A DNA stretch of 64,000 bases from Pseudomonadota bacterium (GTDB taxonomy: Bacteria > Pseudomonadota > Gammaproteobacteria > RBG-16-57-12): assembly GCA_040752855.1 (NCBI GenBank), contig JBFMHP010000017.1:81960-145959 (forward strand). The letters run 5' to 3'. This document shows positions 32,001-41,053 of this stretch, in pieces. The notes under the pieces were generated by a model. The model did no database searches and was not told the DNA's origin. It worked only from the letters and a program-made list of their open reading frames with translations. The stretch's first letter is position 1, and each line of letters opens with the position of its first letter. The translations under genes were made by a program, and so were the position numbers.

Positions 32001-34140
<2,140 letters not shown>

Positions 34141-34198
34141 TACCCGCCTGGCGTCTCCCCACTCAGCGCAGTGGGGAGACTCACCGCTGGCGTGATCT

Positions 34199-34261
34199 AA
34201 CCCGGATATTTCACCATGAATCTACTGCGCCCTCGCTACGATTCGTGATGAAATATCCGGG
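34199..34261. repeat. MITE-like element, short copy (~63 bp), with terminal inverted repeats
   Basis: AACCCGGATATTTCACCAT...GTGATGAAATATCCGGGC. It shares its TIR and internal segments (in rearranged orientation) with the 181-bp copy at 40771-40951. Immediately upstream is a perfect 11-bp hairpin, GTCTCCCCACT/AGTGGGGAGAC, at 34153-34180. Confidence 0.65.
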
Positions 34262-34274
34262 CTAAACTTTACAC

Positions 34275-35006
34275 ATGAGCATCCATCACACATCCGGCGC
34301 CCCGTTCCTGTTGGACCCGGCCAAACTCGCCTTCCCCGATCCGCGGCGAGCCTTACGCGAGCCCAACGGACTGCTGGCCATTGGCGGCGACCTCTCGCCC
34401 CAACGATTATTGGCCGCCTACCGCTTAGGTATCTTTCCCTGGTATGGGCGCAACGAACCGATCCTGTGGTGGTCGCCCGATCCCCGCTGCGTGCTGTTCC
34501 CGGACTTGCTGCACATCTCCCGCAGCCTGCAAAAAACCCTGCGCCGAAACACCTTTGAACTCAGCATCGACCGCGCCTTCCCCGAGGTGATGAAGGCCTG
34601 CGCCGCCCCGCGCCGCTACACCGCCGAGACCTGGATCACCTCGGAGGTCTACACCGCGTATAACCGGCTGCACCAGCTCGGCCACGCTCATTCCGTCGAA
34701 GCCAGGCACAACGGGGAGCTGGTGGGCGGTCTCTACGGAGTCGCCCTCGGCAAGGTGTTTTACGGTGAGTCGATGTTCGCGCGCATAACCGATGCCTCCA
34801 AGGTCGCCATGGCCCACCTGTGCCAGCGCCTGCAACAGTGGGGTTATGAGCTGATCGACTGCCAGATGCATACGACCCACTTGGTCAGCCTGGGCGCGGT
34901 AGACATTCCGCGCGCAGATTTCATGGCCCTGCTCAACAGCCTGCTGCCGCAGCAACCCGCAGCGGATGCCTGGCAAAGCAACCCGCAATCGGCTGCGGCG
35001 CCATGA
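34275..35006 (+). CDS. aat: Leucyl/phenylalanyl-tRNA--protein transferase
   Basis: 243 aa with LAIGGDLSPQRLLAAYRLGIFPW, characteristic of L/F-transferase. Confidence 0.9.
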   Translation: MSIHHTSGAPFLLDPAKLAFPDPRRALREPNGLLAIGGDLSPQRLLAAYRLGIFPWYGRNEPILWWSPDPRCVLFPDLLHISRSLQKTLRRNTFELSIDRAFPEVMKACAAPRRYTAETWITSEVYTAYNRLHQLGHAHSVEARHNGELVGGLYGVALGKVFYGESMFARITDASKVAMAHLCQRLQQWGYELIDCQMHTTHLVSLGAVDIPRADFMALLNSLLPQQPAADAWQSNPQSAAAP

Positions 35007-35841: not shown

Positions 35842-35979
35842 CCCGACGGATGCCCGATTCCTTAAACAACAGAAATCATGCTCCCCTTCATACCTTTTAT
35901 AGAAAAACTTTGAAAAAATTCGCCAACAAAGGCATTATGACGCCTCATTTGGCTTAGAACCGGATATTTAACAGGCTAC

Positions 35980-40700: not shown

Positions 40701-40770
40701 GGAAACTCCGTGATTGTGGCGGTCTAGCGTCGAAAACGTGCGTATTCTAACACTATGCCCCCGTCAGTTT

Positions 40771-40951
40771 AACCCGGATATTTCACCGCGAGTCGTAGCG
40801 AGGGCGCGTAAGGCATTGAAGATTCGGGGCGCACGGAGCTTTTGACGGTGAAGGCATAGTCGACACTCTGTCGAACCGGCAAAAGCGAGTACGTCACGAA
40901 GATTCAATGGATTACGCGACCGCAGTAGATTCGTGGTGAAATATCCGGGTT
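40771..40951. repeat. MITE-like element, long copy (~181 bp), with 16-17 bp terminal inverted repeats
   Basis: AACCCGGATATTTCACCGCGAGTCGTAGCGAGGG ... CGCAGTAGATTCGTGGTGAAATATCCGGGTT. The TIR, CCCGGATATTTCACC, matches the short copy at 34199-34261. It occupies the junction between icd and the T2SS operon. Confidence 0.7.
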
Positions 40952-41053
40952 AAGGAACCTCTGGTTTATCAGGGGCTCCACGCGCGCAATGAGGTGCGTA
41001 CTCTGAGAATTCCCGGAGCGGATTCTCAGAGTGTTCTTGATTCATGGGACGGT

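Follow-up and report, generated by a model that had tools for sequence, protein, structure and literature searches.

A palindrome in the trxB-aat spacer of a gammaproteobacterial genome is very probably a shortened copy of a non-coding MITE family with IS1380-type ends

The spacer between trxB and aat in the gammaproteobacterial genome analysed here contains a short palindrome. The presence of this palindrome raises the question whether the spacer carries a native regulatory site or an inserted mobile element and, if the latter, which transposase would move it. A reading made from the sequence alone (hereafter, the sequence-only reading) had proposed a mobile or formerly mobile, non-autonomous element family present in at least two sizes. 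We analysed the palindrome in the context of the window (that is, the whole 64,000-nucleotide stretch of DNA in which it lies) and compared it with loci from other genomes, plasmids and metagenomes. The results indicate that the trxB-aat palindrome is, with high probability, a shortened copy of a non-coding, IS1380-ended MITE family that generates a 4-bp target-site duplication of consensus YTAR.

Anatomy of the short element and its relation to the long copy

The features of the short element are the following:

34197..34200, no strand: left target-site duplication CTAA, read directly; identical to 34262-34265, and a single CTAG in the empty sites of two relatives, L013 and L014
34201..34261, minus strand (forward being defined by the long copy): short (61-bp) MITE copy, an internal-deletion derivative of the 177-bp form, from collinear alignment, fold energy and syntenic empty sites
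34201..34215, plus strand: terminal inverted repeat CCCGGATATTTCACC, an exact match, identical to the left end of an IS1380-family element (L023 3006-3020)
34247..34261, minus strand: terminal inverted repeat with one mismatch, CCCGGATATTTCATC, from a mismatch-tolerant window scan
34262..34265, no strand: right target-site duplication CTAA, a direct, not inverted, repeat of 34197-34200

From 34201 to 34261 the element reads CCCGGATATTTCACC ATGAATCTACTGCGCCCTCGCTACGATTCGT GATGAAATATCCGGG. A repeat finder pairs two 25-nt arms, 34198-34222 and 34240-34264, that are 88% complementary, and a 71-nt stretch containing the short copy folds with an energy of -34.7 kcal/mol (z = -9.3 against shuffled controls). 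The sequence-only reading had described a unit of about 63 bp bounded by inverted repeats of 16-17 bp: an inverted repeat is indeed present, and the element itself spans 61 bp, the TAA/CTAA bases counted within the repeat lying outside it and belonging to the target duplication. The right arm quoted in that reading, GGTGAAATATCCGGG, is the arm of the long copy; the short copy reads GATGAAATATCCGGG, one mismatch away. The 15-mer core of the terminal repeat (CCCGGATATTTCACC) has six matches in the window at up to three mismatches, against 1.37 expected, a count reached in 0 of 100 shuffles, and four of these six matches are the two ends of the short element and the two ends of the long element, with 0-1 mismatch each. 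For near-matches to the end at 35959 (infA leader) and 59895 (inside a long ORF), no partner end was found. The sequence at window 35956-35975, just 5' of infA (TTAGAACCGGATATTTAACA), has a weak likeness to YTAR plus terminal repeat (12/15), is partnerless, and probably reflects chance.

The aat start codon lies 9 nt downstream of the short element. It is preceded by no Shine-Dalgarno-like sequence (34266-34277), and the same holds in the relatives that are free of the MITE.

The long copy has the following features:

40769..40772, no strand: left target-site duplication TTAA, read directly; a single TTAA in the orthologous context of L013, CGTCAGTTTAATTCAT
40773..40949, plus strand: full-length (177-bp) MITE, a near-complete palindrome between gspN-like and icd genes, from direct reading, folding and homologous copies
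40950..40953, no strand: right target-site duplication TTAA, read directly

A second copy of 181 bp had been placed at 40771-40951; the copy is present, and its bounds are those of a 177-bp element (40773-40949). It folds with an energy of -104.9 kcal/mol (z = -12 against shuffled controls). The minus strand of the short copy is collinear with nucleotides 1-35 and 152-177 of the long copy (that is, its first 35 and last 26 nt), and the deletion junction falls inside a CGC common to ...GGGCGC/GTAAGG... and ...GACCGC/AGTAGA... (slashes marking the junction). This collinear alignment establishes that the short copy corresponds to the 177-bp element in opposite orientation, minus 116 internal bp; its interior is thus not, as had been supposed, a rearranged subset of that of the long copy. 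The 116 bp may have been lost by slippage or recombination between the CGC repeats, which would have left the ends and subterminal segments in place. Our searches found no 61-bp copy beyond that at trxB/aat.

Copies, target-site duplications and empty sites

To find further copies, we scanned a collection holding one genome per species, to which the source genome of the window does not belong, with a 22-nt degenerate end pattern. A database Aat entry 100% identical to that of the window identifies this source genome as a Pseudomonadota MAG. The scan yielded five 177-bp copies on five contigs of the uncultured Chromatiales MAG CAZKZP01 (L001, L004, L005, L006 and L011), 93-97% identical to the long copy of the window, and one diverged copy, 85% identical, in the gammaproteobacterial MAG JADDKJ01 (L007). 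The two copies of the window are thus joined by at least five in one genome and one in another, and the resulting set of eight is dispersed over unrelated loci. Two end-pattern hits that look like homologous coding sequence (L002 and L012) were rejected, as were four single ends, partnerless and without a transposase, that were treated as chance (L003, L008, L009 and L010). The viral contigs searched gave no match, and neither did plasmids searched by blastn with the whole element.

All eight copies have identical 4-bp flanks, and all of these flanks fit YTAR: CTAG at L001, L005, L006 and L011; TTAA at the long copy of the window, L004 and L007; and CTAA at the short copy of the window. The sequence CTAA is non-palindromic, and at the short copy it is repeated directly rather than inversely. 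The direct orientation implies that the duplication is 4 bp long, with consensus YTAR, and that the element proper is CCCGG...CCGGG. The sequence-only reading had anticipated target-site duplications, and these are present at every copy, with a length of four base pairs and not, as had been suggested, in the form of TA or TAA.

A stop codon directly precedes four of the eight MITE copies (L005 5568-5570, L011 3103-3105, L007 4411-4413 and L006 4920-4922), and several copies of the insertion sequences described below likewise lie right behind stop codons (L026-L030, at 909-911). At those loci the stop codon, TAG or TAA, is part of the duplicated YTAR, and insertion rebuilds the stop and leaves the ORF intact. 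With a TAA or TAG in YTAR, insertions fall precisely on stop codons and restore them, a property that would explain how the element persists in GC-rich, gene-dense genomes. The orientation of the MITE copies relative to flanking genes follows no consistent pattern.

Two relatives, reached via the closest Aat homologues, keep the trxB-aat junction without the element: L013, from the Chromatiales MAG CAZKZP01, and L014, from SRA run SRR22388192. Both are about 87% identical to the window in DNA, and L013 is syntenic with it over trxB-aat-ate-infA-clpA-clpS-csp-icd (86.7% DNA identity). The empty junction reads GA-CTAG-AATTTCACC-ATG in both relatives, and the window junction reads GAT-CTAA-(61 bp)-CTAA-ACTTTACAC-ATG. 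In extended form, the junction of L013 is ...GAGACTTCCCGTCCGCGCGA CTAG AATTTCACC ATGAGC... and that of the window is ...GAGACTCACCGCTGGCGTGAT CTAA (61 bp) CTAA ACTTTACAC ATGAGC.... What separates the spacers of the window and L013 is thus the element together with one of the two 4-bp target copies. The boundary of the empty site was set by hand from the other copies; automatic alignment misplaced the gap, because the flank of the relatives, ATTTCACCATGA, is the same as 12 nt of the element end. The long copy is missing from L013 as well, where the site reads CGTCAGT TTAA TTCAT, with a single TTAA. Insertion into the trxB-aat spacer would accordingly be placed in the lineage of this genome, close relatives being without the element. 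The copies of the element in the two genomes match at 93-97% identity, against 86.7% for syntenic host DNA, a difference that suggests recent activity or transfer of the element.

The ATTTCACCATGA flank of the relatives (L013 1674-1685; L014 about 118-129) ends in the aat start codon and equals 12 nt of the window at 34209-34220, and the window's own flank matches 9 of the 12 positions of that inner terminal-repeat segment. This likeness may be a coincidence, or may reflect insertion beside an end-like sequence; IS1380 transposases have been reported to misrecognise end-like sequences (PMC9330008).

At the other locus, the long copy is followed on its right by about 87 nt (window 40954-41040) that the orthologous spacer of L013 does not have. 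These extra nucleotides include an 11-bp inverted repeat, ACTCTGAGAAT (11 nt) ATTCTCAGAGT, near 41001-41033; either a further small insertion or loss from the relative may explain them.

The empty sites bear directly on the alternative that the palindrome is a native regulatory feature of the trxB-aat spacer (a terminator, an attenuator or a protein-binding site) and is not mobile. In favour of this alternative stand the strong fold of the palindrome and its position, with a terminator-like hairpin on one side and the aat start codon on the other. However, two relatives with the same gene order are exactly without the element, bar one 4-bp target copy; the same sequence occurs at unrelated loci and in other genomes; a search of 33900-34500 for promoter-like and terminator-like sites called none; and no Rfam family matches either window copy. 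The sequence-only reading had named the finding of just these two copies, with neither a duplication nor a related insertion sequence, as grounds for preferring a regulatory palindrome; we find eight copies, a duplication at each and, as described below, a related insertion sequence. The empty sites exclude a native regulatory palindrome, and we give that reading almost no credence. For annotation, the palindromes in the spacers upstream of aat and icd are to be read as mobile DNA that has inserted there, rather than as conserved regulatory sites.

The neighbouring hairpin is a separate matter. A perfect 11-bp hairpin had been noted just before the short element, and the repeat finder recovers it at 34153-34180, 13 nt past the trxB stop codon and with no T-run after it. 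The hairpin is kept in L013 and L014, both of which are without the MITE, and in L013 two of its pairs are changed on both sides, from C-G to A-T. A connection between hairpin and element was rejected, since the hairpin is conserved in relatives that are free of the MITE. Judged from this conservation, it is an independent conserved feature, and probably the 3' hairpin of trxB.

Transposase-bearing elements with the same ends

A blastn search of plasmids with a 36-nt end gave a 20/20 match to Acidovorax temperans plasmid pEP1 (NZ_CP117194), at two places in the record. The pEP1 element (L023 3006-4632; 1627 bp) has ends CCCGGATATTTCACC and CCCGGATATTTCACG, is flanked by CTAG on both sides, and contains one 443-aa ORF, annotated as an IS1380 family transposase (WP_273625374.1), that gives E = 6e-170 with PF13701 and scores 422.7 bits, above a cut-off of 180, with NCBIfam NF033539 (IS1380 family transposase). 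The terminal repeat of the MITE and the left end of L023 are identical at 15 of 15 positions. A transposase-bearing element with matching ends, for which the sequence-only reading had suggested looking, thus exists on pEP1 and is of the IS1380 family.

To close homologues of the pEP1 transposase, which number in the thousands in metagenomes, belong those of 12 further loci (83-84% identity), where the elements have ends CCCG(G/A)ATATTTCACG. Matching 4-bp flanks are present at seven of the 12 (8/13 with L023), as CTAG/CTAG, CTAA/CTAA and ATAG/ATAG; that is, as NTAR duplications. Flanks do not match at the other 5 of the 13 insertion-sequence loci. These have one flank in common with further loci, and the mismatch may stem from metagenome contigs assembled as chimeras of a multicopy element, or from recombination among its copies. 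A more distant IS1380-family element from Azospirillum, with 40% protein identity, still starts CTAG CCCGGATAATTCACC. The MITE thus has ends identical to those of transposase-bearing IS1380-family elements and a duplication of the same length and motif.

The likeness between the MITE and the insertion sequences ends after the terminal 15-16 nt, so that simple deletion within any insertion sequence met in this analysis would not yield the MITE. A tblastn search for an IS1380-family transposase found none in the 64-kb window and none in loci L001-L022, the MITE-bearing loci included. Because no transposase is encoded within the window, we infer that mobilisation occurs in trans. The ends of the two kinds of element are identical, and these copies were presumably moved by an IS1380-family transposase: a DDE transposase of this family, supplied in trans, would bind both ends of the MITE, and insertion would proceed at YTAR via a 4-bp staggered cut, with repair of the gaps yielding the 4-bp direct duplication.

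Two other transposase families have to be weighed, both on account of the duplication. According to the hypothesis that the element is an IS630/Tc1-mariner MITE, it would insert at CTAG/NTAN, would duplicate TA only, and would be one base longer at each end (R CCCGG ... CCGGG Y). A TA adjoins each end in every copy, CTAG is the classic IS630 target, and the sequence-only reading had suggested TA as one possible duplication. However, TA-only duplication predicts that outer and inner flank bases vary independently, whereas all four flank bases agree between the two sides in each of the eight MITE copies; the non-palindromic flanks CTAA/CTAA (at a MITE and at an insertion sequence) and ATAG/ATAG (at an insertion sequence) contradict it; and the matching autonomous element belongs to the IS1380 family. 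We regard an IS630-type element as extremely improbable.

According to the second hypothesis, the element is an IS5-family MITE, moved by a transposase of the IS5 group and not of the IS1380 family. The CTAG, TTAA and CTAA duplications fit that of IS5, which is 4 bp long with consensus YTAR (PMC5009759), and the MITE and IS5 have this duplication in common. The only transposase-bearing elements found with the ends of the MITE, however, are IS1380-family elements, with the same NTAR duplications; no IS5-like element with CCCGGATATTTCAC ends was met, and the distant Azospirillum relative is likewise of the IS1380 family. An IS5-type transposase is on this evidence a very unlikely agent, and an IS1380-family transposase is the preferred one.

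Among other element classes, REP/REPIN elements, palindromes of 20-35 bp that are linked to a RAYT transposase and make no target duplication, were ruled out by the clear target duplications and the terminal repeats of insertion-sequence type. IS701 may also use YTAR, and a literature search found no paper on IS701 with YTAR.

The elements described here are small and non-coding, have terminal repeats and a duplication of fixed length, occur as dispersed copies and are missing from empty sites, as is characteristic of MITEs. The proposal of a mobile or formerly mobile, non-autonomous family with at least two sizes is thus borne out by copies, duplications, empty sites and a cognate insertion sequence.

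The conserved fold, known systems and a marine sister family

It is possible, although we consider it unlikely, that the element is mobile and that selection for a single-stranded hairpin of one particular strand (a 3' UTR RNA module or an ssDNA transposition form) also maintains its long palindrome. Its copies would in that case do more than persist as parasitic DNA. We assessed conservation of the fold in an alignment (A3) of window 40769-40953 with L001, L004, L005, L006, L011 and L007, comprising six distinct sequences. Counted over the six distinct long sequences, 99.3% of stem cells are paired, and four internal pairs are changed on both sides. In the diverged copy, L007, no stem pair is lost: four pairs are changed on both sides and still paired, and each of its seven one-sided changes results in G.U, always on one and the same strand; over all copies, pairing is retained in 13 of 16 one-sided changes. 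In addition, the forward strand folds better than its complement in 7/7 long copies, by 5.5-37 kcal/mol, and it stands directly behind the stop codon of a co-oriented gene in three or four copies.

Against selection for a hairpin, only one of the six available sequences is really diverged, the shuffle control is over-optimistic for related sequences, and in both copies of the window it is the weaker-folding strand that runs in the same sense as the flanking genes. The palindrome could also be preserved by symmetry of the transposase-binding sites or by conversion from arm to arm. With a small sample in which one diverged copy predominates, conservation of structure is to be taken as a lead only. 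The specific proposal that the 177-bp palindrome is selected as a one-strand hairpin, RNA or ssDNA, appears to us distinctly unlikely. In it, the hairpin would serve either as a module that travels with its structure, such as a 3'-UTR hairpin placed right behind stop codons owing to the TAA or TAG in YTAR, or as a form needed for IS1380-type transposition.

The family can be set beside several known systems. ERIC, Correia/NEMIS and RUP elements are small, non-coding, mostly intergenic, imperfect palindromes that form long hairpins in either strand, have size variants arising by internal deletion or insertion, and use targets that contain TA. The MITE is of the same small, non-coding, palindromic type, with size variants and TA-containing targets. 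It differs from them in having no sequence similarity to any of the three, in duplicating 4-bp YTAR rather than TA, in being IS1380-associated, and in having uncultured Gammaproteobacteria as hosts. With IS1380-family insertion sequences (IS1380, IS1247, ISEcp1, ISPme1 and, closest among those found, the pEP1 element), the MITE shares the 15-bp repeat (in the case of pEP1), the 4-bp CTAG/NTAR duplication and ends starting with CC. The insertion sequences, however, are about 1.6 kb long and encode a transposase, whereas the MITE is 61 or 177 bp long and does not; the two are unrelated past the terminal 15-16 nt; and some named members, such as IS1247, make a 5-bp duplication, unlike the 4 bp of the MITE (PMC3281130).

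A further parallel is with piggyBac, of which IS1380 transposases have been used as prokaryotic outgroup (PMC10813416). Both this MITE and piggyBac, with its own MITEs, make a 4-bp, TA-centred duplication (TTAA for piggyBac), but the target observed here is looser than that of eukaryotic piggyBac (CTAG, TTAA, CTAA or ATAG) and the host is bacterial. The results show that, in one widespread IS1380 clade, the duplication is 4 bp long and falls on a tetranucleotide centred on TA, in parallel with its relative piggyBac.

The searchable literature, ISfinder lying outside its scope, yielded no description of an IS1380-derived MITE, and literature hits to the end sequence were limited to unrelated primers. 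The family is an ordinary kind of element, apparently not described before; it does not overturn current understanding and, together with a marine sister family, adds to what is known of the IS1380 family.

This second MITE family, palindromic and about 195 bp long, occurs on marine contigs L015, L016, L021 and L022 (Ga0310121, Ga0310124, Ga0310125). Like the MITE of the window, it starts with YTAR plus CCCGGATATTTCACCACGAATC and has YTAR flanks; its interior is different, and its far end, GGTGAAAAATGCGGG, is slightly different and similar to the right ends that the insertion sequences have. A transposase was sought beside the end in two marine partial copies, L017 and L018, and none was found there. 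Copies of the 195-bp family contain repeated subterminal ACGAATC motifs, and the copy in L016 carries an extra, nested hairpin insertion.
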